60,491 nt of DNA from Candidatus Delongbacteria bacterium (GTDB lineage: Bacteria; UBA4055), in NCBI GenBank assembly GCA_003252515.1, contig QKDR01000029.1, forward strand, positions 1 through 60,491, given 5' to 3'. The first letter of the stretch is position 1. The number at the start of each line of letters is the position of its first letter. The position numbers and the translations under genes are program-made. The notes under the pieces are model-generated. The model saw nothing but the letters and a program-made list of their open reading frames with translations, was not told the origin of the DNA and did not search any database. Shown in pieces: positions 33,267-51,512 of the stretch.

Positions 33267-34127
33267 CTATTCGACCGGATTGTCTTTTGTAGCGTTCCAC
33301 TCGTAATAAGCCCCGTCATATACTCTGACTTTTTTGAAATCCATTACGGAAGTCAGTACCGCATAAACAATACCTGCTCTGACGCTTGAAGCGCAGTACA
33401 GGATGATCTCTTTGTCACCTGATATACCGGCAGTCTGCAAAAGTTTAGCTATATCGTCTTTTGATTTTACTGTACCGTCACTGTTTATTACGGTGTCAAA
33501 AACGAAATTCACCGCGCCCGGAATGTGTCCTTTTCTTGTGATATTCGCGTCATCTTTTTCTTTACCGTTGAATTCGTCGCTGCTTCTGACGTCAACCAGC
33601 ATCACACCGTCTTTTTTCATATTGCTTTTTACGTATTCCATTGAAGCGTATTTTGATCCGTCTACCGCAGGAGCGAAAGTAACAGGTTCTACTTTATTGA
33701 TCTTCGCTGACATCTTGCCTCTAGCTTTTGCCCAGCCGCCTGTAATATGACCGTTAAGAATATCTACATTCTTAGCTCCCATATATTCAAGTATCCAGTA
33801 AAGTCTTCCGGCGGCTTTATTCGAACCGGTATCATATACGATGATCTTTTTATCGGGCGTAATTCCTTTTTCGCCTAAATACTTTGCGATCTCTTCTGCC
33901 GGTTTAAGCATTACTTTTATACCTTCCGGATTATACAGCGCGTTAAGATCCACGTTGACAGCCCCGTCGATATGTTTCTTGGCATAATCTTCAGCAGGTC
34001 TTGTTGAAACTATTATCGCGTCACCCGATTTAAGCAGTTTCGCTGCTTCTTTGGCGTCTATAAACCCTCCGAACAGGAATTGTACTCCCGCGATTAAGGT
34101 AATAAACAGAACTAATGATCTTTTCAT
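33267..34127 (-). CDS. exported tandem-domain rhodanese (thiosulfate sulfurtransferase-like)
   Basis: Signal peptide present. Two rhodanese domains: the first is inactive-type (VYDTGSNKAAGR) and the second has the active-site loop YCASSVRAG. Confidence 0.8.
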   Translation of the reverse strand: MKRSLVLFITLIAGVQFLFGGFIDAKEAAKLLKSGDAIIVSTRPAEDYAKKHIDGAVNVDLNALYNPEGIKVMLKPAEEIAKYLGEKGITPDKKIIVYDTGSNKAAGRLYWILEYMGAKNVDILNGHITGGWAKARGKMSAKINKVEPVTFAPAVDGSKYASMEYVKSNMKKDGVMLVDVRSSDEFNGKEKDDANITRKGHIPGAVNFVFDTVINSDGTVKSKDDIAKLLQTAGISGDKEIILYCASSVRAGIVYAVLTSVMDFKKVRVYDGAYYEWNATKDNPVE

Positions 34128-34145
34128 AAGATTTCCTTGCGTTGT

Positions 34146-35237
34146 TTAGAATTTCACCTGCAGCTGTACAAGTATTTCATTGTTGTCAACATCCTGCCAT
34201 TCTTCATCGTTCATTATATAATTGAACTGAAGCCTTGTCCATTCATTGAAGAAATAATTAAATCCGAACGTCATAGTAGTTACAGCCTGATAATCCAGCG
34301 ACATATCTTCGGCTGAGGGATCATATTTATCAATATCTGAATTCGCATCGAAGTATTCGTACTTGAAAACAGGCTGCAGATCCCAAGGCGTCATATATAA
34401 TGCCTGTACGAAATAACCGTTCCTTTTAATTGTTCCCTGGTGAACCACCACGGGTGTACCGTCTCATCCTCCGCCTGTAGTATAGGAACCTTTATCTTCC
34501 GCCTGAATATATTCCGCCTGTACAAGTATATCGGAATATTTGAACTCGAATTCTCCGGCAACCCTGGTTCTCTCGTCTTCTTCGGGCGCTGTGATCACGT
34601 TATAATATTTTCCGAATCTGTAGCTTCCGCCTATGCTGACCATATCCATTGCGTTGTAAACAAGCCTTCCGGCAAACACTTTATTCGGGTTGTCATCTTT
34701 AACACCCACACCATTACCGTTAGTGAGTGACATCGCGTATTTGAATTTTGCGTAATCGTTAACGTCGTAATTACCCTGCAGAAGAACGCCAAGATCCCTA
34801 TCAGGATAGACTAATGTATTTACCACCTTCGATCTTTTTATTGTGTGCAGGCTCTGGCATGGTGTATTCAGTTCAAGACTGAACGGGGATTTGAACTGAC
34901 CCATCGACAGTTTTGCGTATGGTGCAAGACGGGAATAAGTGATAAATCCGTCAAGCAGGAACGGCTGCCCGGCTTCAGTCACGAAAGGGCTTAATTCAAC
35001 TATGATGTAATAGCTGAAATCATACGGAATGCTTCCCAGAAAACCTAATCTTGCTCTGTTGAACGTAAAGCCCATATAATCGTCTGCATCCTCATCGTCG
35101 GACTGCTTATATTCGAACTGAGACTGAATATAGCCGACAACGCTCACTCCTTCATCTGAAGAGGCTTCCATGCATTGTGCCAGCAGTCCTGCAGTCATTG
35201 AAACCATCAGCATGAAAAATAAAATTTTATTCTTCAT
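34146..35237 (-). CDS. phosphate-selective porin O/P-like outer-membrane porin interrupted by an in-frame TGA at 34464..34466 (pseudogene, sequencing error or read-through)
   Basis: ORFs 34464..35237 and 34146..34451 are in the same frame, separated by a single TGA (…YTTGGG*DGTPVVVHQ…). The N-terminal part shows FNRARLGFLG...LLDGFITY...GQFKSPFSLE...PDRDLG (Porin_O_P-like). The C-terminal fragment ends LQVKF, a typical OMP terminal Phe. Confidence 0.6.
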
Positions 35238-35262
35238 TTGATCTCCTTTAATTTAAAATTCA

Positions 35263-35289
35263 GAGCAGGAACTATATAAGCTCCTGCTC
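35263..35289 (-). terminator. strong hairpin (11-bp stem, 5-nt loop) between the rhodanese lipoprotein and porin genes; terminator or attenuator
   Basis: On the minus strand: GAGCAGGAGCT-TATAT-AGTTCCTGCTC, followed by TGAATTTTAAATT. Confidence 0.5.
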
Positions 35290-35298
35290 ATATTTTCG

Positions 35299-36330
35299 TT
35301 ACTTGGCAAGCGTACCTTCAAGAGGAAGATCCACTATTGCCGTCGCATCCCACTTGTGTCCGGTAAGATCGTCATAGATCATCGCGTTAGCACCGTTACC
35401 CAGTGACCATGCGTCATATCCAAGCGCGCCAAGATATGCCGTGATCATTGAAGATGTCTGTCCCGTCCAGCAGTAGGTAACTATCGGCAAGTCAGGATTG
35501 AGAAGGCTCAGATCGATAGGGTTGATCCTGTAAGCTCCGTCAATGTTTCCATAAGTAGTTACGTCAGTTGCAGCCCAGTAATTGTTAATGAAATAGTTCG
35601 TATTGTTGTCGAGAACATCAGTCGCTGTTTTCTTATGGAAATTCTGCGTGATCCAGTATGCTCTGTTAGCCACTATTTCAGCATCCGTGTTACCTTCAAG
35701 TGTAACTGCAGGTAATGCATAAGTTGTCACAGGTACTGTAGCGTTGCCCGGTGCGGCTACCCAGTTGGCATGGTTAAGCTGAGCTGTACCGGCAGACCAG
35801 TAATCGAATCTAAGTTCATTAGCATCTGTAAGAGTAGCAGGATCCGGTTCGCCGTTAGGATTAATATCTGTATGCCATCCTGACATTCCCCACATTATTG
35901 AGAAAGCGTCGGAATAACCTGATAATCTGAGCGCTACCACTGCGTGACATGCGGACTGACCGGTATAGCAGACCACCGCAATTGTTTTCCCTCCGCATGC
36001 TGAGGCGTCAGTAATTATAGTTGCGAGGCTGGAATTTACAGCTCCCGGTATATGTCCTTTTTCGAATAAGGCCGCGCTTCTTATGTCCATTATATAATAG
36101 TCATTTGAAGCATCTGCATCCGTCATTACATCATTGACCGCTGCTGCTGTTTTGATCCAGTTTGTCAGCATGTCGTCTATGCCCATACCTTTGTTATCAA
36201 GATAATTAACAAGGTCCTGAGTCGAGTTGATCGTTACTTCAACGCTGTCGTCATCGTCTGAGCAGCTGATGATGAACATACTTGAGAATAGTACCAGCAC
36301 AATAGCCAGTAATGTGAATCTTTTTTGCAT
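35299..36330 (-). CDS. rhodanese-domain lipoprotein (two rhodanese-like domains)
   Basis: Lipobox FIISCSDDDD. Active-site-like loops VVCYTGQSACH and VTYCWTGQTSS. Confidence 0.7.
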   Translation of the reverse strand: MQKRFTLLAIVLVLFSSMFIISCSDDDDSVEVTINSTQDLVNYLDNKGMGIDDMLTNWIKTAAAVNDVMTDADASNDYYIMDIRSAALFEKGHIPGAVNSSLATIITDASACGGKTIAVVCYTGQSACHAVVALRLSGYSDAFSIMWGMSGWHTDINPNGEPDPATLTDANELRFDYWSAGTAQLNHANWVAAPGNATVPVTTYALPAVTLEGNTDAEIVANRAYWITQNFHKKTATDVLDNNTNYFINNYWAATDVTTYGNIDGAYRINPIDLSLLNPDLPIVTYCWTGQTSSMITAYLGALGYDAWSLGNGANAMIYDDLTGHKWDATAIVDLPLEGTLAK

Positions 36331-36408
36331 TTTGTCCTCCCGGATTTTTTTTCTACCACCTTATTATTACGATCTTAATTTAAGTGAACTCACTTGTTTC
36401 TACCCGCC

Positions 36409-36960
36409 TCATCCGCCGTCGCTTGTTTCTTCTTCGACGACGTCGGGAAGGCTCGGATCAAGCCACTTGGCATATCCGCCTTTAAGGCTCATTACATTTC
36501 TGTAGCCCATTTTCATAAGAGTCTGGGCTGCCAGAGCAGATCTGCCTCCTGATTTACAGTAAACAACTATTTCCTCATCTGTTCCCGGCATTTCGACGAA
36601 CAGATCATTGTCCCAGTACTTTTTGTTCCCGATATTGAACTCAATCATACCTCTTGGAATGTTTACCGTAAACGCATCAGGGTAAGGATACTCTCCGCTT
36701 TCCTCATCTTCCTGATTGATGAACCCTTCTTCGTATTCGGAAGGTTCCCTTACATCGATTACGACTCTTACTTCTTTGTTGTCCAGTTTCGATTTAAAAT
36801 CATCGTAACTGATCTCCGTGATATCTTTCTTCGCTTCACTTACCATTGCTTTGGAATTATCGAAAATCCCGTTCTCGCTGAAACCCTTTCCGCATGATAC
36901 GAGCAGAAGAAGGACAACTGTCAGAGCTGAAAGATATAATATCCGTCTGTTCATCATCAT
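36409..36960 (-). CDS. single-domain rhodanese lipoprotein
   Basis: Lipobox LLLVSCGKG. Canonical active-site loop VVYCKSGGRSALAA. Confidence 0.8.
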   Translation of the reverse strand: MMMNRRILYLSALTVVLLLLVSCGKGFSENGIFDNSKAMVSEAKKDITEISYDDFKSKLDNKEVRVVIDVREPSEYEEGFINQEDEESGEYPYPDAFTVNIPRGMIEFNIGNKKYWDNDLFVEMPGTDEEIVVYCKSGGRSALAAQTLMKMGYRNVMSLKGGYAKWLDPSLPDVVEEETSDGG

Positions 36961-36966
36961 CTCCTT

Positions 36967-38181
36967 TTAAAATGCGGAAAATTTTCCGGTTTTTTCATTC
37001 CATTTTACAAATATGTACGCAAAAAGCAAAAGCACAAGGATCAGTATTACCGATCCGGTATAACCAAGATAATCCGGCAGGAATACTTTTGTCGCTTCGG
37101 GCAGAAAACTGTCGAAGAAAGGCACAACGAAGTTCCTGGCGATCGGAGCAAATACAACGAATCCGAGTGCGGACAGCCATAGTTTAACATGTCCTTCTCC
37201 GGCTCTCCATAATGTTCCGACAGCACAGCCGCCGGCTATCGTCATACCCAGACCAAAGATGAACCCTCCGATCAGAGCTTTCGCCCAGAAGCTCGCGTAT
37301 ACTGCTTTCATTTCTATAGCCCTTACTGAAGTCTCCGCGGCGTTCCCGACACCAAAATACTTGAGAACGGTATAGCCGGTCAGGATCACAAGTATACTGA
37401 TAATGACCGCAACAGGAGCGGTCGCTTCGCCCGTCATGAACGGCTCGCGGAAAGCTCTAACAATACAGAATCTGGATCTCTGAAGAATGAGTCCGAGAAG
37501 CAGTCCGATTATAATATGCCATCCGAGCACCTTCATTCCCGAAGAACCTTCATAGTTATAGTTTCCGGCGACATAAAGAACCGCGATTATCACAAGCCAG
37601 GCCAGCCATTTCTGCCAAGCTCCGTGTTTGCTGTTGCCCGCCAGAAAAGTGTATGATTTTCCCGTGCTCATAAAAGGAAGGACTTCCATTTCCCAGATTA
37701 TATACTTTAAGGCAATATAAGTACCGATCAGAAACCCTAATGCCAGAAACAGAGCTCCGCCAGACAGAGCAGGCAAAGCCGAGAAGAAACCGCCTGTAGT
37801 ACATCCTACTCCGACCATAGATCCTACAGCCATCAATGCGCCTCCGAGAAAACCTTTGAAAAGTTCACCCTTTGGAGCGATCTTGATCCCGAACTCACCC
37901 GAGAATAGAGATGCCGTCATTGATCCTACCACCACCATAATGTTCAAAATGGCGACAGTATGCATGCTTACAGGTGTCGATGTGCTCATACTTTCCCATC
38001 CGAAAGCTCCGAGGAAGTTCTGCCCGATGTTCAGATAGCCTCCACTTGCCCCCCAGGGATACTTCACAACGAACAGAAGGATGTTCAGAACAGCCAGAAG
38101 TACACCTCCGACCCACATCGGCCAGGATTTTGCGAACAGGCTGTCGTATAGTTCCCTGAGCGTTCCGCCTTTTTTAAACAC
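36967..38181 (-). CDS. YeeE/YedE-family sulfur-compound (thiosulfate-type) transporter
   Basis: 404-aa polytopic protein. It has the three Cys-containing half-helix motifs typical of YeeE: GVGCTTGGFF, SRFCIVRAF and AGGCAVGTLW. A TusA-like gene lies immediately downstream. Confidence 0.8.
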   Translation of the reverse strand: MFKKGGTLRELYDSLFAKSWPMWVGGVLLAVLNILLFVVKYPWGASGGYLNIGQNFLGAFGWESMSTSTPVSMHTVAILNIMVVVGSMTASLFSGEFGIKIAPKGELFKGFLGGALMAVGSMVGVGCTTGGFFSALPALSGGALFLALGFLIGTYIALKYIIWEMEVLPFMSTGKSYTFLAGNSKHGAWQKWLAWLVIIAVLYVAGNYNYEGSSGMKVLGWHIIIGLLLGLILQRSRFCIVRAFREPFMTGEATAPVAVIISILVILTGYTVLKYFGVGNAAETSVRAIEMKAVYASFWAKALIGGFIFGLGMTIAGGCAVGTLWRAGEGHVKLWLSALGFVVFAPIARNFVVPFFDSFLPEATKVFLPDYLGYTGSVILILVLLLFAYIFVKWNEKTGKFSAF

Positions 38182-38192
38182 AGCTTTCTCCC

Positions 38193-38420
38193 TTATTTTT
38201 TCTTGATGTAGAACTTATTCTCGCCCTCACCTTCCTCTATGCTGAGAAATTCGTTCCCGGTTTTATTACACCATGCCGGTACGTCAGCTTTTGATCCCGG
38301 ATCCGTACCTATCAGTTCAAGCACCTGTCCGGGCTGAAGGTCCTTCATCGCCTTAGCAAGCTTGATTATAGGCATAGGGCATGATAATCCCCTGCAGTCC
38401 AATGTTTGATCAGCGTTCAT
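38193..38420 (-). CDS. tusA: TusA-family sulfur carrier protein
   Basis: 75 aa. LDCRGLSCPMPIIKLAK is the CPxP motif. Confidence 0.85.
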   Translation of the reverse strand: MNADQTLDCRGLSCPMPIIKLAKAMKDLQPGQVLELIGTDPGSKADVPAWCNKTGNEFLSIEEGEGENKFYIKKK

Positions 38421-38933: not shown

Positions 38934-39764
38934 CTAAAAAGCTTCGGGTATATTTTTAAGTTCTTCGAATGAAAATACCGGTCCGTCGATACAGACATAC
39001 TTCGAGCCTATACCGCATCTTCCGCATTTCCCTATTCCGCATTTCATCCTTCTTTCGAGCGAAGTGTATATTTTATCGTCCGCGAATCCGAGTTCCTTAA
39101 GAACGGGCAGCGTGAATTTTATCATGATCGGAGGACCGCAGACAACAGCCCACGAATTCGGATCGGGAGCCACTTCTTTTGTGATGGTCGGAACGAATCC
39201 GCAATGCTTAGTCCATCCTTCTACCGATTTGTCAATGGTCAGGTGCAGAAAAAGGTCATCTCTCTTATCCCATTCCTTAAGCTCGTCCTTGTAAATGAGC
39301 AGATCGGGGTTCCTTGCTCCATAGATCACTGTGATCATACCATAATCCGACCTGTGTTCGAGCATATAAACAAGCATCGATCTCAGGGTCGTGAAAGCAA
39401 AACCTCCGCCGATTATCACTACATCCGCGCCTTTGAATTTCTCGACCGGATACCAGTTCCCGAGAGGACCCCTGATACCTACGATATCTCCCGGCTGAAG
39501 ATAATGGATCTCCTTTGTTACGGATCCGGTCCTGTTGACCGTGAATTTAAGAATGTCTTTTTCTGTAGGAGAAGAAGCTATTCCGAATGGGGATTCTCCC
39601 TTTCCGAGCATCGAGAACTCGCAGAACTGACCCGGCATGTAACTGAATTCGTCCCTGTCTTTCTCGTTCACAAAAGAGAGGTCAAATGTTTTAAGGGTTT
39701 TGTCCGGATTCTCGGCAAGGATTTTCTCGACCTTCATCTGTATAGGTAAGTAACCGTTACACAT
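38934..39764 (-). CDS. FAD/NAD(P)-binding oxidoreductase subunit with C-terminal [2Fe-2S] (FlxA / AsrB / sulfhydrogenase-gamma-like)
   Basis: FNR-like fold motifs (MPGQFCEF, RTGSVT, VVIIGGGFAFT) and the C-terminal motif CGIGKCGRCGIGSKYVCIDGPV. The start is uncertain (39764 or 39737). Confidence 0.7.
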   Translation of the reverse strand: MCNGYLPIQMKVEKILAENPDKTLKTFDLSFVNEKDRDEFSYMPGQFCEFSMLGKGESPFGIASSPTEKDILKFTVNRTGSVTKEIHYLQPGDIVGIRGPLGNWYPVEKFKGADVVIIGGGFAFTTLRSMLVYMLEHRSDYGMITVIYGARNPDLLIYKDELKEWDKRDDLFLHLTIDKSVEGWTKHCGFVPTITKEVAPDPNSWAVVCGPPIMIKFTLPVLKELGFADDKIYTSLERRMKCGIGKCGRCGIGSKYVCIDGPVFSFEELKNIPEAF

Positions 39765-40812
39765 CGGCTTGGACCTTTTCTTTAATTTTATGATCTAAAA
39801 TACCTTTTATAACTTCTCTGATATCGAAATTTACGGGACAAACCACGATGCACCTGCCGCAGCCCGTACAAAGATGGCTTCCGTAATTCTCCATAAAATA
39901 ATTGAATTTATGCATCACTCTCTGTTTCACACGCTGAGTCGAATTTCCGCGTGGATTATGACCTGAAGCCTCCATAGTGAAGATCGGGAACATGCATGAA
40001 TCCCACAGCCTGACCCTTTTTCCCCTGCCGTTCTTACCTTCGTCAGATACGTCGAAGCAGTGACACGTCGGACATATAAAAGCACAGGCGCCGCAGTTGA
40101 CGCATTTAGCGGCCAGTTTCTGCCACACAGGTTCGTTCCAGACTGTTGAAAGCTTTTCGAACAGGTTTGATATGTCGGTTGGTTTGGACATCATTTCTTC
40201 AGCTTTCTTTTTGGCTGTTTCGGCAAGTTCTTCGTCCTTCTTCTCCGCTTCAATCGTTACCGACAGTTTTTCAAGTAATGCTTTACCTTTTTCAGAGACA
40301 CCTTTCAGGATCAGATCCCCGTCAGTCTCAACGACGAACACGTCCGAACCGGTCTCGTCAAAAGGACCGCCGCCGAACCAGTTGCAGAAACAGGTTGACA
40401 GTGGTGCAGTGCATGCGAAGTTGAAGATAACGGAGGTGTCGTACTTTTTCTTCCAGTACGGGTCTTTGTACATATCCTTGTCCGGAGCCTGATGTGCGTT
40501 ACCGAACACCTTATCCAGCATTCTGATGCTCTTCGTGTCGCAGTTCCTCACACCCCAGAGCAGATAAGGTTTCTCTTCGTTATCCGAAATCCGGACCCCG
40601 TTAGTGTCATACTCGAAAAGTACTTCCGATTGGGGAAAGAAAACGTCTTTAGGAGATCTTTCGGATTTTACGGTGCCGGTAGAAATTTCCGCCGGATCGG
40701 TGATCTTTTTAAATTTAGATCTGGACCCGTCTTTTACCGGAGCGAAAACGAGATAATCCTTTAAAAATTCTCCGATCAGTCCGTTTATTTTGTCTTTTTT
40801 TACTTTCAGCAT
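39757..40812 (-). CDS. Fe-S subunit (AsrA / sulfhydrogenase-beta / FlxB-like), 2x[4Fe-4S]
   Basis: CVNCGACAFICPTCHCFDV and CTGCGRCIVVCPVNFDI. I prefer the start at 40812 (MLKVKKDK), just after the upstream stop. The ORF track extends to 40851. Confidence 0.65.
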   Translation of the reverse strand: MLKVKKDKINGLIGEFLKDYLVFAPVKDGSRSKFKKITDPAEISTGTVKSERSPKDVFFPQSEVLFEYDTNGVRISDNEEKPYLLWGVRNCDTKSIRMLDKVFGNAHQAPDKDMYKDPYWKKKYDTSVIFNFACTAPLSTCFCNWFGGGPFDETGSDVFVVETDGDLILKGVSEKGKALLEKLSVTIEAEKKDEELAETAKKKAEEMMSKPTDISNLFEKLSTVWNEPVWQKLAAKCVNCGACAFICPTCHCFDVSDEGKNGRGKRVRLWDSCMFPIFTMEASGHNPRGNSTQRVKQRVMHKFNYFMENYGSHLCTGCGRCIVVCPVNFDIREVIKGILDHKIKEKVQADV

Positions 40813-40814
40813 TT

Positions 40815-41780
40815 TCAACTCATTATAAAATCTTGTTTTTCGTGCTCGCAAAAGGTCGCCATTGCAGGTTTCTCATTAATGTCGAGACCTGCAGTATATC
40901 CGAACCTTTCCCTGATCTCCTTCTCGACCTTCTTGTTCATGATCCTCAGGTCGATCTCCACTGGACAGGCAGTAACGCAGGACCCGCAGTCGACGCACCT
41001 CCCGGCTATATGTATATTTCTTATAAGGTGGAAAATTATCGAATCTGTCGTTTCAGGGGTCTTTCCTATCCACTGCGGATTGTTCTGATCCACAAAACAT
41101 TCGTTGCAGTAGCATGACGGGCAAACGTTCCTGCATGCGTAGCAGCGGATGCATTTTGAATATTCCTCAGTAATATATTCCCATCTTTCTTCGGCTGTTT
41201 TCTTTTCGAACTCGTTGACGCTGGAGAATTCTTCCGGTACGTCAACTTCTTTTCTCGGTTCGCCGATGAAAACGTCGTATTCCCTCGCGTCGGGATATCT
41301 GCAGTAGATACAGGAATCTGAAAGGACTTCTTTTTCCGGTACGGATTTCTCGAGATCCCTGCCTTTTATCGTAACTATATTTCCGGAGCTTTTCACGGAA
41401 AATATCTCTTTTCCTTCCGCTGCAGCCCTCAGCTTCTTTTTCTCATACATCCCTTCGCAGTGTACGCCGATTATAAATACGTTTTCTCTCTTGACCTGAT
41501 TCTCAACAGCATAAAGAACGACCGATCTGGCATCACAGCCCTTAACGATCACTCCGACCTTCGCATGATCCTTAGAAAGTTTCCTCTTGTCTTTCGTCAG
41601 ATATGAAGTAAGATTGTTCCTGCATGTATGGTCGAATATCAGTTCCCCGACATCTTCGGGATATTCCATGAACAGAGGCGTGGCGATACCGGGAAGAGTG
41701 CCTTTTTTCCAGCCGATCACGATATCCGCCTTCTTCTCTTCAAGTATCTTCTTAACCGTATCCTTAAGTTCCTGCAGCAT
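40815..41780 (-). CDS. Fe-S protein, member of a local three-member paralog family (FlxC/FrhB-like?)
   Basis: CIRCYACRNVCPSCYCNECF...IFHLIRNIHIAGRCVDCGSCVTACPVEIDL. N-terminal GCDARS motif. Its ATG shares one base with the mvhD stop (TAATG). Confidence 0.6.
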   Translation of the reverse strand: MLQELKDTVKKILEEKKADIVIGWKKGTLPGIATPLFMEYPEDVGELIFDHTCRNNLTSYLTKDKRKLSKDHAKVGVIVKGCDARSVVLYAVENQVKRENVFIIGVHCEGMYEKKKLRAAAEGKEIFSVKSSGNIVTIKGRDLEKSVPEKEVLSDSCIYCRYPDAREYDVFIGEPRKEVDVPEEFSSVNEFEKKTAEERWEYITEEYSKCIRCYACRNVCPSCYCNECFVDQNNPQWIGKTPETTDSIIFHLIRNIHIAGRCVDCGSCVTACPVEIDLRIMNKKVEKEIRERFGYTAGLDINEKPAMATFCEHEKQDFIMS

Positions 41781-42202
41781 TATTTAACTCCTTTTACAAG
41801 TCTTTTGGCCGGTCCGATCTTTTTTATATCTTCCGATATTTTTGCTATAATATTGGCGAATCTTTCGCCTTCTCCTGCGGAAATCCACGAGAACTGAACT
41901 CTCTCCGGTTCAACTCCGACATACTCTAAGAGAGGCTTGATCGCCGCGAATTTTCTTCTTGCTATGAAATTACCTGACAGGTAATGGCAGTCGCCCGGAT
42001 GTCAGCCGGATACGAAAAGCCCATCATAACCGCTCTGAAGCGTCTTTACTATAAAAAGCGGATCGACCCTTCCGGAACATGGTATTCGCACAACTCTTAC
42101 GTTCGGAGGGTACTGCATCCTGGATACACCTGCCAAGTCAGCTCCGGCATAAGAGCACCAGTTGCACAGTAAAGCCAGTATTTTCGGTTCCCAGTTACTC
42201 AT
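41780..42202 (-). CDS. mvhD: MvhD (methyl-viologen-reducing hydrogenase delta / FlxD-like) selenoprotein; UGA at 42004..42002 read as Sec
   Basis: The track ORF 42002..42202 ends ...LFVSG at a TGA. The same frame continues U-HPGDCHYLSGNF...SWISAGEGERF for 73 sense codons to TAA 41782..41780. The TGA sits at the Cys of the conserved G-C-H-x-G-D-C-H-Y motif. Confidence 0.85.
41969..41985 (-). promoter_or_regulatory. SECIS-like hairpin downstream of UGA (mvhD copy 1)
   Basis: In the mRNA: AUUACC-UGUCA-GGUAAU, starting 17 nt after the UGA. Confidence 0.5.
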
Positions 42203-42222
42203 TGAAACTCCGTGTTATCAGT

Positions 42223-45200
42223 TTACTCGTTCATTACATTAATTATATCAAGCGATTCGAATGCGCTGAACATCTGCTCGTTCGTGAATCCTCTCAGATC
42301 CAGCGCACCGCACCTGCATGATGCCACACATGCCCCGCAGCCCTTGCATAGAGCGTCGTTCACTTTTGCGACTTCTTTCTCCTTATTGATCTCGATCGCG
42401 TTGTACGCGCATATCTGTTCGCAGTAACCGCAGGCCGTACAACGGCTTTCGTTCACCTCGCAGATGGTTCCTTCCGCGAGAACGGCTTTTTTGTTCAAAA
42501 ACGTCATCGCCCTGCTCGCCGCCGCTTTGGCCTGAGTGATACTTTCGCTACAATCTTTCGGGCCGTGCGCCAGACCTGCAAGAAAAACGCCGTCCGTCGC
42601 GAAATCCACCGGTCTGAGTTTTGCGTGGGCTTCGAGGAACATACCGTCAGTGTTTAGCGATACTTTAAGCATCTTGGCCAGATCCAAATTCTCTTTCTTG
42701 GCATCAACGGCGGTCGAGAGAACAAGAAGGTCGGCTTTTATTTCAATGTTCCTGTTCACGATCGGGTCGAAGACCGTGACGTTGACCTGAGTATCCGGAT
42801 CCATATCGTTGACAAGAGCCACTTCCGGTTTGTTGTCCGGCGTGTAGTGAACGAACATCGCTCCCTTGCCTCTCAGTTCGGAATAATATTTTTCCCTGAA
42901 ACCGTACGTTCTCACATCCCTGTACACGATGTAGATGTTCGCGTTCGGAAGCATCTTCTTGAGCACACCGGCGTTCTTGACGGCTTTCGTACAGCAAATT
43001 CTGCTGCAGTACATTTTCCCTTCCTCTCTCGATCCTACGCACTGTATCATAACCACGTTCTGAGGTTTTCTACCGCCGGGGAATTTCTTATCCTTCATCA
43101 TCCTTTCAAGCTCGACCTGCGAAATGATCCTTGATGATTCCCCGTAAAGGTATTCTTTCGACTCATGCTCGTCAGCTCCGGTCGCGATGATCACTGCTCC
43201 GTGCTCAACTATAACAGGCTGATCGCTACCTTTTTTCAGAAGTGTGGACTTGAAATTACCGACGTAACCGTCGATCTTTTGTATTTCAGTGCTCATATGA
43301 ATATGAATAAGCCTGTTTTTCCTGAGTTTATCTATTGTATCAGCAAGAAGTTCCTGCGGGTCGTCCTCGAAATTGAAGAAAATATTCCTGAGATTTCCTC
43401 CGAGCTCGTTCTCTTTTTCCACCAGATAGACTTCGTGTCCCGCTTCGGCCAGCGAGATCGCTGCGGTCATTCCGGCAAGTCCTCCGCCGATGACCATTGC
43501 TCTCGGATCGATAGGTATAGGCAGCCTTTTCAAAGGTTTCAGCTCTCTTGCTTTCGCGATACCCATACTTATAAGATCTTTAGATTTAGCTGTAGCGAGT
43601 TCCGGTTCGTTCATATGCGCCCAGGAGCACTGGTCTCTGATGTTGGCCATTTCGAACAGATACGGATTAAGCCCGGCTTCTGAAATTGTTTCCCTGAACA
43701 GAGGTTCGTGAGTTCTGGGAGTACACGCTGCTACGACGATCCTGTTGAGATTATGTTCTTTTATCTTTTCCTTTATTGTGTTCATACAGTCCTGAGAACA
43801 TGCGTATATCAGGTTCCCCGAAAATTCTACGTTAGGCTGAGTTCCGGCATGTTCGGCGACCGCTTTCACATCCACGACCCCGGCGATATTTATACCGCAG
43901 TGGCATACGAAAGCGCCTATCCTGGGTCTGTCTCCGGAAACGTCCATTTCAGGCACAGCTCCTTTTTTGTCTGTCAGGTCCTGACGCTCAAGCCTCAAGA
44001 ACTTGAGAGTTTCGGCTACAGCGCCTGAAGAAGTTGTAACCGACTCGGGGATGTCTTTAGGAGCATTCATAGCTCCGCAGACGTAAATACCTTCACTGGT
44101 AGTGTTCAGAGGAGTATTAGCGTCCGATCTGCAAAACCCGAATTCGTTCAGGTTGAAGTTCAGTTTTTCAGCGAGTTCGGTTATGTTGTTCCTGGGCTGA
44201 AGTCCGATCGAAAGCACGACCATATCGAATTTCTTGTACTGTATTTCTCCGTTCTCGAACACGTATTTCAGAATCAGGTTGCCCTCGTCGTCCTGGGAAA
44301 TGTCCGAAACTTTGGATTTTATGTATTCGACACCATATTTGCTTTTTGATTTTTCATAATATTTATCGAAATCCTTACCGAACGCTCTTATATCCATATA
44401 GAATATCGACGGCTGAAGGTCTTTTATGTGCTCTTTTGCAATAATAGCTTCTTTGATGGCGAACATGCAGCATGCTGAGGAACAGTAATTATGATTTATA
44501 TTCTCGTCCCTGGACCCGACGCACTGAATGAAAGCGAGACTCTTCGGTTCCTTGTGGTCTCCCGGACGTATGACATGACCTCCAAGCGGACCGGAAGCAG
44601 ACAGCATCCTTTCGAACTCAAGTGAAGTGACCACGTTCGGATATCTCTTATATCCGAAATTGCCGAAATGGATCGGGTTGAACGTATCTATCCCGCTCGA
44701 CAGTATTACAGCTCCGACATTAATTTCGTACTGTTTGTCTTTATCATCAAAATCTATCGCGCCTGCCGGACAAACCTTTTCGCATATCCTGCAAACGCCC
44801 TTGTTAAGATAAAGACAGCTTCTTCTGTCGATAGTATATTCTGAAGGGATACTTTGAAGGAAATATCTTGATATCGCTCCTCTTTTCCTGAGCTTCATGT
44901 CGAACTCGTCGTCAATCTTGACCGGACATTTTTCTTCGCAGAGACCGCATGATACGCATTTTTCCTGATTGACATACTTGGCTTTTTCAGTAATTACAGC
45001 CTTGAAATTGCCGGGAACACCGCTTACGGAATCTACGATCGAAGTCGTGTATATTTTTATATTGGGATGTCTGACGCTCTCGCTCATTTTCGGCGCGAGG
45101 ATACACATTGAGCAGTCATTGGTCGGGAAAGTTTTGTCCAGCTGGGGCATTCTTCCACCAATCGAAGGTGATTCTTCGACCAGATGTACCTTAATGCCCA

Positions 45201-45279
45201 TTTCAGCAAGGTCAAGCGCCGCCTGTATGCCGGCTATCCCCGCTCCTACTACCATTACCGATCTGCTTTTCAAACTCAT
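42223..45279 (-). CDS. hdrA: double HdrA (two HdrA-type flavin modules fused, 1018 aa)
   Basis: Module 1: VVGAGIAGIQAALDLA...DKTFPTNDCSMCI and NYCSSACCMFAIKEA. Module 2 starts at RIGAFVCHCGINIAGV, with IGGGLAGM, MYCSRICCTKAVKNA and two C-terminal CxxCxxCxxxC motifs. Confidence 0.85.
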   Translation of the reverse strand: MSLKSRSVMVVGAGIAGIQAALDLAEMGIKVHLVEESPSIGGRMPQLDKTFPTNDCSMCILAPKMSESVRHPNIKIYTTSIVDSVSGVPGNFKAVITEKAKYVNQEKCVSCGLCEEKCPVKIDDEFDMKLRKRGAISRYFLQSIPSEYTIDRRSCLYLNKGVCRICEKVCPAGAIDFDDKDKQYEINVGAVILSSGIDTFNPIHFGNFGYKRYPNVVTSLEFERMLSASGPLGGHVIRPGDHKEPKSLAFIQCVGSRDENINHNYCSSACCMFAIKEAIIAKEHIKDLQPSIFYMDIRAFGKDFDKYYEKSKSKYGVEYIKSKVSDISQDDEGNLILKYVFENGEIQYKKFDMVVLSIGLQPRNNITELAEKLNFNLNEFGFCRSDANTPLNTTSEGIYVCGAMNAPKDIPESVTTSSGAVAETLKFLRLERQDLTDKKGAVPEMDVSGDRPRIGAFVCHCGINIAGVVDVKAVAEHAGTQPNVEFSGNLIYACSQDCMNTIKEKIKEHNLNRIVVAACTPRTHEPLFRETISEAGLNPYLFEMANIRDQCSWAHMNEPELATAKSKDLISMGIAKARELKPLKRLPIPIDPRAMVIGGGLAGMTAAISLAEAGHEVYLVEKENELGGNLRNIFFNFEDDPQELLADTIDKLRKNRLIHIHMSTEIQKIDGYVGNFKSTLLKKGSDQPVIVEHGAVIIATGADEHESKEYLYGESSRIISQVELERMMKDKKFPGGRKPQNVVMIQCVGSREEGKMYCSRICCTKAVKNAGVLKKMLPNANIYIVYRDVRTYGFREKYYSELRGKGAMFVHYTPDNKPEVALVNDMDPDTQVNVTVFDPIVNRNIEIKADLLVLSTAVDAKKENLDLAKMLKVSLNTDGMFLEAHAKLRPVDFATDGVFLAGLAHGPKDCSESITQAKAAASRAMTFLNKKAVLAEGTICEVNESRCTACGYCEQICAYNAIEINKEKEVAKVNDALCKGCGACVASCRCGALDLRGFTNEQMFSAFESLDIINVMNE

Positions 45280-45300
45280 AATACAGTCCCCGCCGTCTGT

Positions 45301-45741
45301 CTAAATAAATATATTGTGTTTACTTTCATTCTCACCTTTTTCCAGGATATCTTTTGTGAACTCGTTGCCGACCTGAGCGAATTTCTGCCCTTCCGAAGCC
45401 GAGATCCATGACAACCTGAACCTTTCTTCGTCAAGTCCGAGACCTCCGAACAGGGCTTTTAGAATTTTGATCCTTCTTCTTGTATAGAAATTACCGACCT
45501 GGTAATGGCAGTCGCCGGGGTGTCATCCGCCCACAAGTATGCCGTCAGCCCCTCTCAGGTACGATTTGATAAGGAATACAGGATCGATCCTGCTGGAGCA
45601 CATTACCTTTATCGGCAGAATAGATGTCGGATAGGACATCCTGTTGATACCCGCCAGATCCGCTCCGGTATATGAACACCACTTGCATAAAAAACTTACG
45701 ATCTTTGGTGATTCAGCGCTTTTCATATCTTTATTTTCCAT
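45301..45741 (-). CDS. mvhD: MvhD-like selenoprotein; UGA at 45525..45523 read as Sec
   Basis: The track ORF 45523..45741 ends ...ILVGG at a TGA. The frame continues [13 protein letters not shown]...[11 protein letters not shown] for 73 codons to TAG 45303..45301. Confidence 0.85.
45490..45506 (-). promoter_or_regulatory. SECIS-like hairpin downstream of UGA (mvhD copy 2)
   Basis: In the mRNA: AUUACC-AGGUC-GGUAAU, starting 17 nt after the UGA. The loop contains GGUC. Confidence 0.55.
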
Positions 45742-45762
45742 GTTTTAAGCTCTCAACTTATC

Positions 45763-46854
45763 TTATTCACCGAGTTCAGGGAATTCCTGCTCTTTATATA
45801 TCATCACCGGTATCTTTTCTTCTACATTTCTACCCGGTACGAAACTGAATTCAGAGGCCACAATCTCACCGGCTCTGTTGAAGACCGTTCCTACAGGTAT
45901 CGAAGCGGGACATACATCTGAGCATTGTCCGCAGCCGACGCACGAAAAAGCCATATGGGACATTCTGCCGATGTGAAAGAATATCGTATCGGGCGGAAGC
46001 CTTACCGCGCCTTTCTGTTCAGCCTCTTTTTCGATTATCGTCCTGTTGTAGTCAAAATTCGCGGAAGAAAAATCGCATTGAGTACAATAACAAATGGGAC
46101 ATACAGAATTACAGCCTCTGCAGCCGATACATCTTCCGAATATCTCCACGAGCCCTTCAAGCCCTTTATCGCTTTTATCTACTGCCGCGTACTGCCGATG
46201 CTTTACTTCCTTTCTTTCAGAAACGATCCCTGACAGTACTGACGGATCGAATTTCCCGTTCTTAAGTTCTATTCCCGATCCTTCAATTATCTTTTTCGTT
46301 CTCTCGTTCCAGACATATATCTCGGTCGTTCCGCATTCCGATCCCAGAAAACTCACAAGAACATCCGCGTTCTCAGGATAAAAATGTTCGCATCTGAGAC
46401 AGTTGTCTCTTAAACCATCCGTATTTTTACATTCCGAAACTGAAGCGTAATATTTTTTTAACTCTTCGTCGGACATACCACCGGCAAGTTTCTGCATAGG
46501 GTAAACCCCTCCGCAAGTATAGCTGGCTGTTATAAAATTATCGATATCGCCCTGAACTCTCTTTACAAGTTCAATGAAGGCTCTTAATTCACAAGGTCTG
46601 ATTATAGCCAGAACAGGCTTATCCATCTTTGTGAATTTGGACAGTATCTTGCCCGCGTTCTGAGGCATTGCGGGATAGAAGGGTACGATATATTTCAGAA
46701 GTTCTGGATCCGTTATCAGTCCGTAATCGGCATTTGACGCGCCTCCGAATTTCTTTAAAGAGAACACTCCGCCGATCTTTCCGTTCTCGAGCAGATATGA
46801 AGCAAGTTCTCTTACTGCAGTATCACGGTCCTTGTTTATCACCGCTTTAAGCAT
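45763..46854 (-). CDS. Fe-S protein, local paralog family (FrhB/FlxC-like?)
   Basis: RPCELRAF motif. CIGCRGCNSVCPICYCTQCDF...IFFHIGRMSHMAFSCVGCGQCSDVCPASIPV. Confidence 0.6.
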   Translation of the reverse strand: MLKAVINKDRDTAVRELASYLLENGKIGGVFSLKKFGGASNADYGLITDPELLKYIVPFYPAMPQNAGKILSKFTKMDKPVLAIIRPCELRAFIELVKRVQGDIDNFITASYTCGGVYPMQKLAGGMSDEELKKYYASVSECKNTDGLRDNCLRCEHFYPENADVLVSFLGSECGTTEIYVWNERTKKIIEGSGIELKNGKFDPSVLSGIVSERKEVKHRQYAAVDKSDKGLEGLVEIFGRCIGCRGCNSVCPICYCTQCDFSSANFDYNRTIIEKEAEQKGAVRLPPDTIFFHIGRMSHMAFSCVGCGQCSDVCPASIPVGTVFNRAGEIVASEFSFVPGRNVEEKIPVMIYKEQEFPELGE

Positions 46855-48010
46855 CTAATCCCTCCTGTCTGTCAACACTCTTCACCAGCTCTCCCAGCTG
46901 TCCCAGCTGTCCGAGCTCTTCCTCTTTATAATCTCTCATCGGCAGCGGATCTCCTGTGCTGTTACCTGCTCTGTAATCGAAAGCCTCCTGGGTCTGTGAT
47001 GCCATATAACTGAAAACCGAGGCTACAGGAATATCTACCGGGCAGGCGTCAGAGCACAGTCCGCACGATACGCACGACAGGCTCATATGCGTCATCCTGC
47101 CTATATGGAACATCAGCTTATCTTCCGGGAAAGACAGCGCGCCTTTCTTTGACGCTCTCAGCAGTTTATAATCTGAATTCTGCTCATTTACCGAAGAGTC
47201 AAAAAAGCACTGCCTGCAGTAGCAGATCGGACACACGCTTCCGCAGTTATGACAGCCTATGCATTTCTCAAATACCTTATTAAGGTTCTGCATTCCGTCG
47301 ACCGAGGCTGCGGTTTCCGTGAATACTTTTGTTCTTTTTTCTTTCCTTACTGACAAGGCGGCGCTGAAAGAGTCTTCAGCGGGTTTCATATCTTCTTCTG
47401 CCTTCAGACCGCAGTCAGTGATAAATGAATTCCCTTTCTCGGTAACAGGCACAAGGTACAGATCGCTGTCTGTTTCTGAAATATGCATGTCGGATGAAGT
47501 TCTGCCGAATTCAGTACAGGTACCACAAATGCTCTTCATTATATCCGAATTATATTCCCCGCTCATGAAAGCCGAGTTAAAATCACTGCCTTTACCTTCG
47601 GGATCTTTGATGAAATCCTGCATCGGGACCGCTCCGGGGCAATCGTATGTTATCAGAAAAAGGTCTTCGGAATGAACCTGATTAAGTTTAATAAGTTCGG
47701 TCAACGCTCTTATCTCGCAGGGTCTCACAAGCACGCATGTCCTGTACTTTCCGTTCCCTTTTCTTGTCAGTCTTTTAACTGCATTGGCAGCGTTAACCGG
47801 CATTATCGGAGTGATAATGTCGGACATCTCCAGTACCTTCCTGTCCCTGATCAGCATCCAGGCGTATGAATCACCGGAAGGTACTTTTACGGGAAGAAAG
47901 GCCGCATCCGCAATTCCCGAATCCAGAGCTTTAACCAGAAAGTCCTTTATCACTTCTCTGTAATTTTGTTTAGAACCCAGTTTGACTCCCTTCGGAGTGA
48001 TTATATCCAT
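46847..48010 (-). CDS. Fe-S protein, local paralog family (FrhB/FlxC-like?)
   Basis: RPCEIRAL motif. CIGCHNCGSVCPICYCRQCFF...LMFHIGRMTHMSLSCVSCGLCSDACPVDIPV. 8-nt overlap with the downstream paralog. Confidence 0.6.
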   Translation of the reverse strand: MDIITPKGVKLGSKQNYREVIKDFLVKALDSGIADAAFLPVKVPSGDSYAWMLIRDRKVLEMSDIITPIMPVNAANAVKRLTRKGNGKYRTCVLVRPCEIRALTELIKLNQVHSEDLFLITYDCPGAVPMQDFIKDPEGKGSDFNSAFMSGEYNSDIMKSICGTCTEFGRTSSDMHISETDSDLYLVPVTEKGNSFITDCGLKAEEDMKPAEDSFSAALSVRKEKRTKVFTETAASVDGMQNLNKVFEKCIGCHNCGSVCPICYCRQCFFDSSVNEQNSDYKLLRASKKGALSFPEDKLMFHIGRMTHMSLSCVSCGLCSDACPVDIPVASVFSYMASQTQEAFDYRAGNSTGDPLPMRDYKEEELGQLGQLGELVKSVDRQEGLDA

Positions 48011-48020
48011 ATAAATCCCT

Positions 48021-49706
48021 CTACCTTACAGCTTCTTTAATTTCCTGGAACAGCTGCGGGTTGGTGAAATGCCTTGATCTTATTGAACCTGAAGGACAGC
48101 TTCCCACGCAGTTACCGCATCCTCTGCAAACGGCACCGTTGACTACCGAGACCGCTTTCGCATCATCAAAATAAATAGCACCGTATTTACATACTTTGAG
48201 ACATGTCTGACATCCGGTACAGTACGCTTCCAGAACTTCAGACACCTTAACTTCAGGAACGATCTTCTGACCGGGAATAAGCTGGGTAGATATCTTTGCG
48301 ACAGCCGCTTTCGCCTGTATTATGGAATCTGCGACATTAGCCGGACCGTGAGCGGCACCGACGGCAAAGATACCGTCGTTGGATGAAGATATCGGATTTA
48401 TCTTAAGATGAGCTTCTTTTATGAATCCGTATTCGTCAAGATCGATATTGAGAAGTTGAGCAAGTTCTTTAGTTCCCATGGCCGGTATGACCGACTTGGC
48501 GTAAATTATCATATCGTGCTCATCTGTTCCCTCTGTACCATAAGGATCGGCGTATTTTACCGTCTCGCCTTTAAGATTGAGACCGCTGATATATTTGAAT
48601 TCAATACCTTCCTCTCTGACATCCTTATAGAATGACTGACTGTCTTTTGTAGGAAGGCACAGATCTCTGATGTAATGGACGACAGGAACATCGGGATACA
48701 TGGCTCTTATATATGATGATATCTTTATCAGATAATTGCAGCAGATCTTTGAACAGTAGCCGGATAACTCTCTTCCGACACAGTGTATAATTCCCACTGA
48801 AGTTGGTGTCTTGCCGTTTTTCTTCAGCACTTTCTTCTGCTGAGCCATAAGAGCTTCTATCTCGAGTCCGCAATGTACATCGTGTTCGTCTGAAAATTCC
48901 ATGTATGCTGATTCTCCGGCATGAAGCAGTTCGTATCCCGTCGCGACTATAACGGCTCCTGCCATGAATTCCGTAGTATCGTTGTTAACAAGATTTCTTA
49001 TAACAATTTCATAATTACCCTGAAAACCTATAATACTTTCAAGCTTTGTACTTGTAAACACTTTTATATTCGGGTTCTTTTTGAGTTTTGCGAGCTTCTG
49101 ACTTATCATGTTCAGGTTCGATCCCTGCTCGGTCAGCAGGCCGTGAAGCCTGGTAGTCTTACCTCCCAGTTCCGGGGCTCTTTCGATAAGATAGACCGTC
49201 CTGTCCTTTGATGCAAGGTTCAGAGAAGCCTGAACACCGGCTATACCTGCTCCGATCACAAGCACATCGCAGTTAGAATCAAGCTGGTTCTCAAATAACT
49301 GTTCCTGATACAGAACTCTGTTCATACCGCCGTGAATATACTTGACGGCTTTATCCGTCGACTGTTCCTTGTCAGGTATTACCCATGCGCATTGCTCTCT
49401 GATATTCACCATCGTATAAAGATAAGGGTTCAGCTTTGTTTTCTTGCAGACCCCGATGAAAGTCGAATCGTGCTCTCTCGGTGAACAGGCGGCGCAGACC
49501 ATATGGGTAAGTTCGTTTGAATTTATCTCATCCTCAAGAAATTTCTTGCCTTCGTTCGAACAGAGAAGCTTATGTCGTCTTATAACAAGCTCTTTATCAC
49601 CGAAATCCTTCAGCCCGGCTATTTCCGCTGCTATCCTGTCCATATCCACTTTACTGGCTATGTTGGGACCGCACTCGCATAAGAATATTCCTATTTTATC
49701 ACCCAT
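48021..49706 (-). CDS. hdrA: HdrA, complete canonical-type module (561 aa; second half of a split double HdrA)
   Basis: KIGIFLCECGPNIASKVD N-domain, VIGAGIAGVQASLNLA, GYCSKICCNYLIKIS, and C-terminal CTGCQTCLKVC plus CRGCGNCVGSCP. Confidence 0.8.
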   Translation of the reverse strand: MGDKIGIFLCECGPNIASKVDMDRIAAEIAGLKDFGDKELVIRRHKLLCSNEGKKFLEDEINSNELTHMVCAACSPREHDSTFIGVCKKTKLNPYLYTMVNIREQCAWVIPDKEQSTDKAVKYIHGGMNRVLYQEQLFENQLDSNCDVLVIGAGIAGVQASLNLASKDRTVYLIERAPELGGKTTRLHGLLTEQGSNLNMISQKLAKLKKNPNIKVFTSTKLESIIGFQGNYEIVIRNLVNNDTTEFMAGAVIVATGYELLHAGESAYMEFSDEHDVHCGLEIEALMAQQKKVLKKNGKTPTSVGIIHCVGRELSGYCSKICCNYLIKISSYIRAMYPDVPVVHYIRDLCLPTKDSQSFYKDVREEGIEFKYISGLNLKGETVKYADPYGTEGTDEHDMIIYAKSVIPAMGTKELAQLLNIDLDEYGFIKEAHLKINPISSSNDGIFAVGAAHGPANVADSIIQAKAAVAKISTQLIPGQKIVPEVKVSEVLEAYCTGCQTCLKVCKYGAIYFDDAKAVSVVNGAVCRGCGNCVGSCPSGSIRSRHFTNPQLFQEIKEAVR

Positions 49707-49717
49707 AAACTACCTTA

Positions 49718-51007: not shown

Positions 51008-51014
51008 ATTCCAG

Positions 51015-51437
51015 TTATAAATTGATGTCTTTTGTAACAGGATTAGGACCTAGCTTAGCGATCTTCTTCGTGAACTCATTCACGACCTGTTCGTATTTAT
51101 TGCCTTCCGAAGCTGATATCCACGTAAGCTGGATCCTTTCGGGATCAATATTCAAGGTTTGGAATACCTTTTTAAGGAGAGCGTACCTTCTTCTTGTGTA
51201 GTAATTACCGACCTGGTAATGGCAGTCGCCCGGATGTCAGCCGGCGATCAGAACGCCATCCGCTCCGTTGAAGAAAGTAGTAAGTAATAGATTATGGTCC
51301 ACCCTGCTGGAACACATCACCCTGACGGCGTTGAATCCGGGTGGCAGATTTTTTTTAGCGGCTCCCGCCATATCCGCTGCGGCATATGTACACCAGTTGC
51401 ATAGGAAGCCGACTATTTTCGGATTGAACTCTTCCAT
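51015..51437 (-). CDS. mvhD: MvhD-like selenoprotein; UGA at 51239..51237 read as Sec
   Basis: The track ORF 51237..51437 ends ...VLIAG at a TGA. The frame continues [13 protein letters not shown]...TWISASEGNKY for 73 codons to TAA 51017..51015. Confidence 0.85.
51204..51220 (-). promoter_or_regulatory. SECIS-like hairpin downstream of UGA (mvhD copy 3)
   Basis: In the mRNA: AUUACC-AGGUC-GGUAAU, starting 17 nt after the UGA. Identical to copy 2. Confidence 0.55.
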
Positions 51438-51469
51438 TTAACACTCTGTCAAAAATTACATTAATTTAT

Positions 51470-51499
51470 TAAAAAAGCGCCCGTCTGCTGACGGACGCC
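51470..51499 (-). terminator. rho-independent terminator after the dsrE-like/tusA pair
   Basis: GCGTCCGTC-agca-GACGGGCGC hairpin (one mismatch), followed on the minus strand by TTTTTT. Confidence 0.7.
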
Positions 51500-51512
51500 T
51501 AACGAGAATCGT

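Follow-up and report, generated by a model that had tools for sequence, protein, structure and literature searches.

Contig QKDR01000029.1 of a Candidatus Delongbacteria assembly (GCA_003252515.1), analysed here over its whole 60,491-nucleotide stretch (the window), carries on its minus strand a 66-codon open reading frame (ORF) that raises the question of whether an MvhD-type redox gene has been broken by a TGA or is read through it as a selenoprotein gene. The ORF starts at ATG 42202 and stops at TGA 42004..42002, with ...DGLFVSG as its C-terminal residues. Past the TGA, the unchanged frame reads HPGDCHYLSGNFIARRKF...SWISAGEGERF and has 73 sense codons before it closes at TAA 41782..41780; the final A of this stop doubles as the A of the ATG that opens the ORF 40815..41780, giving a one-base overlap. 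The full frame (mvhD/flxD-like copy 1, 41780..42202, minus strand) comprises 140 codons, and its codon 67 (42002..42004), immediately 5′ of the motif HPGDCHY, is the UGA proposed to encode selenocysteine (Sec). The original prediction, made from the nucleotide sequence alone, had described the ORF, the 73-codon continuation and the base shared with the next ATG, and all its coordinates check out; the 66-residue fragment that it expected from a standard gene caller is exactly what the mechanical ORF list contains. As judged from comparison with homologues, copy 1 is very probably a real selenoprotein gene, with the UGA as its Sec codon and a functional Sec insertion sequence (SECIS) element behind it.

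The joined product, searched with cysteine written at the UGA, has 140 residues and matches the Pfam family PF02662 (FlpD/MvhD) over positions 1-123 of 123 with an E-value of 9.7e-53. Further matches are to the VhuD model of NCBIfam and to the MvhD-like domain at the C-terminus of HdrA2. Over residues 1-133 the joined product aligns with the MvhD crystal structure from Methanothermococcus thermolithotrophicus (5ODC chain D, E 1.7e-49), in which the UGA corresponds to Cys67 of GGCHLGDCHY, and the same column holds a cysteine in the other aligned solved MvhD chains (four more shown of the six matched). The alignment runs column for column, copy 1 having C13, C16, C42, U67 and C72, and the conserved set of CxxC, C42, C/U67 and C72, which holds or flanks the [2Fe-2S] cluster, is complete. 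The assignment of the read-through product to the MvhD/VhuD type is upheld by both the full-length family match and the structural alignment, and it is reasonable to call residue 67 cluster-proximal.

A protein search of a large collection returned thousands of relatives, of which the best 120, all full-length, were used for column counts. These are 138-152 residues long and share 76-83% identity with copy 1 at 98-100% query coverage. The UGA column is cysteine in 120 of the 120, within the motif [VI]SG-C-HPGDCHY, in line with the cysteine claimed earlier for the position before H-x-G-D-C-H-Y and with the solved MvhD structures. Two paralogues in the window have the same construction, namely copy 2 (45301..45741, minus strand, UGA 45525..45523) and copy 3 (51015..51437, minus strand, UGA 51239..51237). 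In both, the TGA abuts HPGDCHY and is followed by 73 open codons, and PF02662 is covered over 1-123 of 123 positions in copy 3, as in copy 1, and over 1-120 of 123 in copy 2. Scanning one genome per bacterial or archaeal species with the DNA pattern GGN-TGA-CAY-CCN-GGN-GAY-TGY-CAY-TA located TGA-HPGDCHY in at least 120 stretches of other genomes. At the 125 pattern sites in these stretches, wherever the fetched stretch was long enough, the frame is open on both sides and the conserved C-terminal half of MvhD follows downstream. The hosts among the matches listed include Desulfobacterales, other Thermodesulfobacteriota, Syntrophomonadaceae, Desulforudis, Pelotomaculum, Moorellaceae, Cloacimonadota and Candidatus Delongbacteria, together with single bins labelled Planctomycetota, Gemmatimonadota and Armatimonadota. 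In Cloacimonadota, Delongbacteria and the one Armatimonadota-labelled bin, two such genes lie about 3.5-3.9 kb apart (3.5 kb in the window), and on one Cloacimonadota contig the distance between the two UGA-type mvhD genes is 5.7 kb. At the DNA level, the nearest fetched loci share only about 70% identity with the window. The recurrence of the UGA across the paralogues and in loci as distant as these excludes sequencing error and private nonsense mutation as explanations.

The UGA of copy 1 is followed, after a 16-nucleotide spacer (42001..41986), by the SECIS-like hairpin AUUACCU-GUC-AGGUAAU (41969..41985, minus strand). Its 5′ arm AUUACC(U) occupies 41985..41979, the loop GUC 41978..41976 and the 3′ arm (A)GGUAAU 41975..41969, and it can be drawn either with 6 bp and the loop UGUCA, in which form it had been predicted and is indeed present, or with 7 bp and a GUC triloop. 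Copies 2 and 3 carry the hairpin AUUACC-AGGUC-GGUAAU at 45506..45490 and 51220..51204, respectively. The published criteria for bacterial SECIS elements comprise an apical loop of 3-9 nucleotides, an upper stem of 4-16 bp, a G in loop position 1 or 2, usually followed by G or U, a distance of 16-37 nucleotides from the UGA to the loop and a minimum free energy (MFE) of -7.5 kcal/mol or lower (PMC13188914, Fig. 2). The hairpin of copy 1 has a stem of 7 bp, the loop GUC, a UGA-to-loop distance of 23 nucleotides and an MFE of -9.1 kcal/mol over the 40 nucleotides from the UGA. The corresponding values are 6 bp, AGGUC, 22 nucleotides and -8.8 kcal/mol for copy 2, and 6 bp, AGGUC, 22 nucleotides and -8.7 kcal/mol for copy 3. 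All three hairpins thus agree with the bacterial SECIS model, the energy cut-off being reached only if a neighbouring 3-bp helix is counted, and the SECIS-like placement noticed in copy 1 extends to copies 2 and 3. The fdhF-type SECIS of Escherichia coli and the bSECISearch consensus are likewise stem-loops inside the coding sequence just past the UGA, with a small apical loop containing G followed by G or U (PMC13188914). The window hairpins differ from the fdhF type in being a single short helix of 6-7 bp without an evident bulged U, and in having a stem sequence that is partly set by the conserved CHY..GN codons. The loop AGGUC of copies 2 and 3 resembles the GGUC loop of fdhF.

The hairpin was compared between genes with UGA (Sec-type) and genes with a cysteine codon (Cys-type) at this column. 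The Sec-type set consisted of 123 distinct sequences from the genome scan, the metagenome loci and the window, and the Cys-type set of 71 distinct sequences from 80 metagenome loci fetched by protein. A plain comparison of MFE values between the two proved too unspecific, and position-specific pairing counts were used instead. An ungapped hairpin of at least 6 bp starting 12-16 nucleotides past the codon is present in 112 of the 123 Sec-type sequences compared with 11 of the 71 Cys-type ones (Fisher test 3e-27, shared ancestry being ignored); within the metagenome set alone the figures are 7/7 and 12/72. The paired sequences fall into two registers, structure A (AUUACC/GGUAAU, the type found in the window) and structure B (GCCACUA/UAGUGGC), shifted by 3 nucleotides, which rules out a single common structure for all Sec-type genes. 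One or the other is fully paired in 105/123 Sec-type against 5/71 Cys-type sequences. The seventh pair of structure A is U-A in 47 genes and A-U in 15, and the 11 Sec-type sequences lacking the ungapped hairpin appear by eye to have mostly a bulged form of B. Codon usage follows the same division: the His, Tyr, Gly and Asn codons occur in essentially 2 combinations in the Sec-type set (CAT-TAC...GGT-AAT and CAC-TAT...GGC-AAY) compared with 27 in the Cys-type set. In the window, the mean column identity between copies 1 and 2 is 77%, but GGCGACTGCCATTACC and GGTAATTTC are the same in both at every base, wobble positions included, and copy 3 has the same GGCGACTGCCATTACC and GGTAAT.

A natural Sec/Cys control is provided by a locus from a metagenome-assembled genome (MAG) labelled Bacteroidales (L201; GCA_019038625.1, JAHOYU010000078.1). 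It carries the same operon in the order HdrA, iron-sulfur protein, iron-sulfur protein, MvhD, HdrA, MvhD, iron-sulfur protein, AsrA-like, AsrB-like and HdrC-like, and its two mvhD genes have TGC and TGT at the column and no hairpins. Taken together, these comparisons, which do not account for phylogeny, indicate that the hairpin is probably under selection specifically where the UGA is present. Eight Cys-type mvhD loci (L139, L141, L143, L155, L158, L163, L164 and L174) keep a hairpin at the Sec-type position; these genes may have converted from Sec to Cys recently and retained a fossil SECIS, or the pairing may be due to chance.

Several observations weigh against a functional SECIS and a Sec codon. 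The hairpin is short and AU-rich and amounts to only -4.7 to -5.3 kcal/mol by itself, and the folding energy is no better than that of shuffled sequence (z about 0), so that support for the hairpin comes from the comparative data and not from thermodynamics. Rfam at gathering thresholds gave no match over the whole window, and at E-values up to 10 it gave only four chance-level matches in 41000..52000, none of them on the hairpins. The specificity of the hairpin is incomplete, as about 15% of the Cys-type genes show one at the same place, and the Sec-type set was drawn from other collections and by other search routes than the Cys-type set. The six core pairs of the window hairpin class are invariant, which is conservation and not covariation. 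Finally, no selA, selB, selD or tRNA(Sec) is present within the 60 kb window. Neither in the window nor in 24 related loci did ARAGORN detect a tRNA or a tRNA(Sec). However, a tRNA(Sec) of the Cloacimonetes type has been described, which sets a precedent for the use of Sec in this part of the tree.

If the UGA is decoded as Sec, the 66-residue ORF would be the N-terminal part of a single 140-residue protein of the MvhD/FlxD type. According to the established bacterial pathway, SelB-GTP carrying Sec-tRNA(Sec) would bind the hairpin while the ribosome stands at the UGA, and this complex would deliver Sec at residue 67 in place of termination by a release factor. The product would be a small adaptor with a [2Fe-2S] cluster, from which an HdrA-like partner receives electrons one at a time on its flavin.

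The alternative that survives best, though it is improbable, is that the UGA is recoded to an amino acid other than Sec, either to cysteine by a tRNA(Sec)-like tRNA(Cys) together with SelB, or to tryptophan or cysteine by near-cognate read-through. A tRNA(Sec)-like tRNA(Cys) has been described in some anaerobes, and a recoded cysteine column followed by a SelB-type hairpin testifies to recoding and not to the amino acid inserted, while the sel genes were not seen in the window. Set against this, PF02662 is an established Sec-containing family and tRNA(Sec) occurs in relatives of the lineage. Leaky read-through, moreover, needs no conserved hairpin and would be an inefficient way of making three core redox subunits. 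Less credible still is a gene broken at codon 67 by a nonsense mutation, decay or a sequencing error: a lone in-frame TGA is what a C/T-to-A error or pseudogene formation would leave, and the missing sel genes would suit it, but the TGA stands in the identical column in three diverged window paralogues and recurs in stretches of other genomes, at least 120 of them, it is accompanied by a dedicated hairpin, and the downstream half is open and conserved, with 99% coverage and about 80% identity to the Cys homologues. A split gene, in which translation stops at the UGA and the HPGDCHY... polypeptide is initiated separately and assembles with the first piece, is equally hard to credit; gene callers in public databases do report such fragments, as for the analogous porin described below, but the downstream half contains no separate ORF of at least 40 residues starting with ATG, GTG or TTG, the frame is always kept across the TGA in relatives, and the conserved cysteine set straddles both halves. 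A global reassignment of UGA (code 4 or 25) is ruled out, because TGA ends 15 of the 47 gene-like ORFs of the window (TAA ends 23 and TAG 9).

Incorporation of Sec, as favoured here for the window mvhD genes, has close precedents. PF02662 (FrhD/MvhD/VhuD) and HdrA are both catalogued selenoprotein families, as the original prediction had held for VhuD and HdrA. Its further claim of Sec-containing MvhD and HdrA in Deltaproteobacteria is exemplified by Desulfobacterium autotrophicum HRM2, in which four Sec-containing MvhD proteins (MvhD1/2/3/5) are encoded beside hdrA/hdrL and selABCD are present (Strittmatter et al. 2009, PMC2702500). Both there and in the window, several Sec-mvhD paralogues lie next to hdrA/hdrL outside a complete Mvh hydrogenase, together with an HdrL-type fusion (in the window, 1485 residues, 28728..33185) and several HdrA genes. 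The two differ in lineage, the window coming from a relative of Delongbacteria and Cloacimonadota in the Fibrobacteres-Chlorobi-Bacteroidetes (FCB) group, and in that several HdrA/HdrL proteins of D. autotrophicum are also selenoproteins, whereas all three window HdrA/HdrL-type proteins with an FPT/NxDCxxC motif have cysteine at the HdrA Sec site (DCSMC in the 1018-residue protein). This site corresponds to Sec197 of the Methanococcus HdrA. Within these window complexes MvhD, not HdrA, is the predicted carrier of Sec.

Archaeal VhuD has the family, the fold and the role of a [2Fe-2S] adaptor docking on HdrA in common with the window MvhD. The second Sec of VhuD presumably occupies the same G-U-H-x-G-D-C-H-Y position. 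VhuD differs, however, in having two Sec residues and a SECIS in the 3′ untranslated region and in being part of a [NiFeSe] hydrogenase, whereas the window genes have cysteines in CxxC, an in-frame bacterial hairpin and no hydrogenase genes nearby. Another bacterial adaptor homologous to MvhD is BamF of the class II benzoyl-CoA reductase of Geobacter metallireducens, which has a [2Fe-2S] cluster and one Sec, Sec19, and links an NADH/ferredoxin input module to an HdrA-type flavoprotein (bioRxiv 10.64898/2026.04.10.717634). BamF is more than 100 residues longer than the window MvhD and, judging from its position, Sec19 would lie in the N-terminal CxxC/U motif and not at residue 67. The gene content around copy 1 also recalls an NADH dehydrogenase/heterodisulfide reductase. 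In FlxABCD-HdrABC of Desulfovibrio, which is of this kind, FlxD is the MvhD-like subunit, and the set of a flavin adenine dinucleotide (FAD)/NAD(P) subunit, two iron-sulfur subunits and Hdr-like subunits is mirrored in the window by mvhD, the iron-sulfur proteins of 321 and 364 residues, the FAD/NAD protein of 276 residues and the HdrC-like protein of 164 residues. FlxD of D. vulgaris is, as far as is known, a cysteine protein; the window also differs from the Flx system in having no HdrB among the scanned ORFs of at least 120 residues and in having sulfur-carrier genes as neighbours. The window mvhD genes are further members of an already known selenoprotein type, one whose genes are commonly split by gene callers.

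The gene order on the minus strand begins with mvhD copy 3, followed downstream by two HdrA-like genes, of 429 residues (49718..51007) and of 561 residues (48021..49706, no FPT/NxDCxxC motif seen), two iron-sulfur proteins and mvhD copy 2. Then come the 1018-residue HdrA-like flavo-iron-sulfur protein (42223..45279), which has a duplicated HdrA core, scores 1009 bits with the HdrA2 model and is the upstream neighbour of copy 1, and copy 1 itself. Copy 1 is followed by the 321-residue iron-sulfur protein with a 4Fe-4S dicluster and a weak FrhB C-terminal match (40815..41780), an AsrA/HydB-like iron-sulfur subunit (364 residues, 39757..40851) and an AsrB/HydG-like FAD/NAD(P)-binding subunit (276 residues, 38934..39764). 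The last part of the order comprises the HdrC-like gene (164 residues), TusA, YeeE/YedE, two rhodaneses, a porin, another rhodanese and the HdrL-type fusion, which includes a glutamate-synthase-type NAD(P)H module. Every mvhD copy adjoins an HdrA-like gene, since copies 2 and 3 each immediately precede one and copy 1 immediately follows the 1018-residue one, which is the expected docking partner of the MvhD encoded by copy 1; MvhD/VhuD proteins have a [2Fe-2S] cluster and pass electrons to the bifurcating FAD of HdrA.

The window thus has counterparts of FlxA, FlxB and FlxC together with HdrA and an HdrC-like gene, and a CCG-domain HdrB was not found among the scanned window ORFs of at least 120 residues. 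Neither was a large or small subunit of a [NiFe] hydrogenase among these ORFs, and "MvhD" is therefore a family name here, denoting an adaptor and not a hydrogenase subunit. From the gene order, copy 1, the 1018-residue HdrA-like protein and the iron-sulfur and FAD/NAD(P) subunits encoded downstream would form a soluble electron-transfer complex of the Flx/Hdr type, with the AsrB/HydG-like subunit as the probable entry point for NAD(P)H. Such a complex is probably NAD(P)H-linked and tied to the neighbouring sulfur/selenium carriers (TusA, YeeE/YedE, rhodaneses and DsrE-like).

The porin of this cluster bears the same signature. A scan of the window for in-frame TGA codons, with at least 40 codons required on each side, flagged this porin along with the three mvhD genes; its other candidates were artefacts of antisense frames or of adjacent genes. 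The porin gene (34146..35237, minus strand) encodes an ExtI-like protein of the OprO/P family and is a selenoprotein candidate. Its ORF 35237..34464 (257 residues, PF07396 Porin_O_P) stops after ...GSYTTGGG at TGA 34466..34464, 105 codons follow to ...LVQLQVKF, and the two halves together score 62.1 bits with Pfam, compared with 45.8 bits before joining. Among the best 120 homologues the TGA column is cysteine in 112, tryptophan in 1 and a gap in 1, and the remaining 6, the window protein and five relatives, end exactly at ...GGG. For four of these truncated relatives (L203, L204, L205 and L209, one of them from a Delongbacteria MAG) the DNA has TGA at that codon in 4/4; the frame is open to the C-terminus in three, and the contig of the fourth stops 20 codons past the TGA. 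All four have a hairpin with a G-containing loop starting 16-19 nucleotides past the UGA, the stem sequences of which differ and still pair, and the window porin has one at about 34435..34453. Three Cys-type relatives (L206-L208), in which the gene order TusA, YeeE, rhodanese, rhodanese, porin, rhodanese is the same, are without such a hairpin.

The best NCBIfam match of the porin is the selenite/tellurite-operon porin ExtI of Geobacter (50 bits, below the cut-off), and a neighbouring rhodanese matches ExtH weakly. ExtI, which contains a single cysteine, is not itself a selenoprotein. Known selenoprotein families are tabulated in a 2026 review, the text of which never uses the word "porin", and in the parts of that review reached by a term search the only outer-membrane beta-barrel family was GSU2204/MtrB-type. 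The window porin is accordingly put forward as a candidate for a new selenoprotein family. It is less expected than the Sec-mvhD genes, which are unsurprising to a selenoprotein specialist. The three Sec-MvhD proteins and the UGA porin, with its conserved cysteine column and covarying hairpin, could belong to one selenium-dependent island for sulfur/selenium trafficking, made up of TusA, YeeE/YedE, rhodaneses, porin, HdrL/HdrA and MvhD; the chances of this being so appear about even. If it were, a porin selenoprotein family absent from the 2026 review would be added to the known ones, and a selenol would be placed in or at an outer-membrane channel beside rhodanese sulfur/selenium carriers.

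For annotation, the consequence is that three core genes of a redox cluster would be reported as fragments of 66-72 residues with their C-terminal halves lost, and the same fragments are visible for relatives in public protein sets. A metabolic reconstruction of this uncultured FCB-group lineage would miss both the intact MvhD adaptors and the dependence on selenium. The locus would add one more bacterial lineage with Sec at residue 67 of MvhD and cysteine kept in HdrA. Furthermore, syntenic operons with cysteine and no hairpin, and with Sec and a hairpin, offer a natural experiment on what Sec contributes beside the [2Fe-2S] cluster.

Sulfur/selenium-carrier genes are dense around the Hdr-like cluster, at 33267..38420 and 51513..52868. 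The first group includes TusA (38193..38420) and the YeeE/YedE-like gene (36967..38181), which matches the selenium-metabolism YedE model weakly. A DsrE-like gene (51766..52131) belongs to the second, as do two TusA-like genes of 74 residues each that are nearly identical (51513..51737 and 52644..52868) and between which lies a 90-residue ORF that looks ArsR-like by eye (52259..52531). Three rhodaneses belong to the carrier-gene set. Three tandem thioredoxin genes and an OsmC-like gene are found at 26720..28660 on the minus strand. No TGA interrupts the family matches of the thioredoxins, which span nearly the full profile, or those of the OsmC-like, DsrE-like and rhodanese genes. A 105-residue ORF at 26413..26730 also resembles an ArsR-type regulator by eye. 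In the 1.3-kb gap 25397..26719, the minus strand has short, stop-broken ORFs at 25519..26186, with one in-frame TGA at 25830..25828. By eye these resemble remnants of a mobile element or transposase, and one piece of this stretch scanned against Pfam gave no match at E <=1e-5.

Elsewhere in the window, two large proteins with type IX secretion C-terminal sorting domains are encoded at 1774..6180 and 12722..16474, both on the minus strand, and a TonB-dependent receptor is also present. The sorting domains and the receptor are consistent with an origin in the FCB group, and the best named relatives of the window genes come from Candidatus Delongbacteria and Cloacimonadota MAGs.

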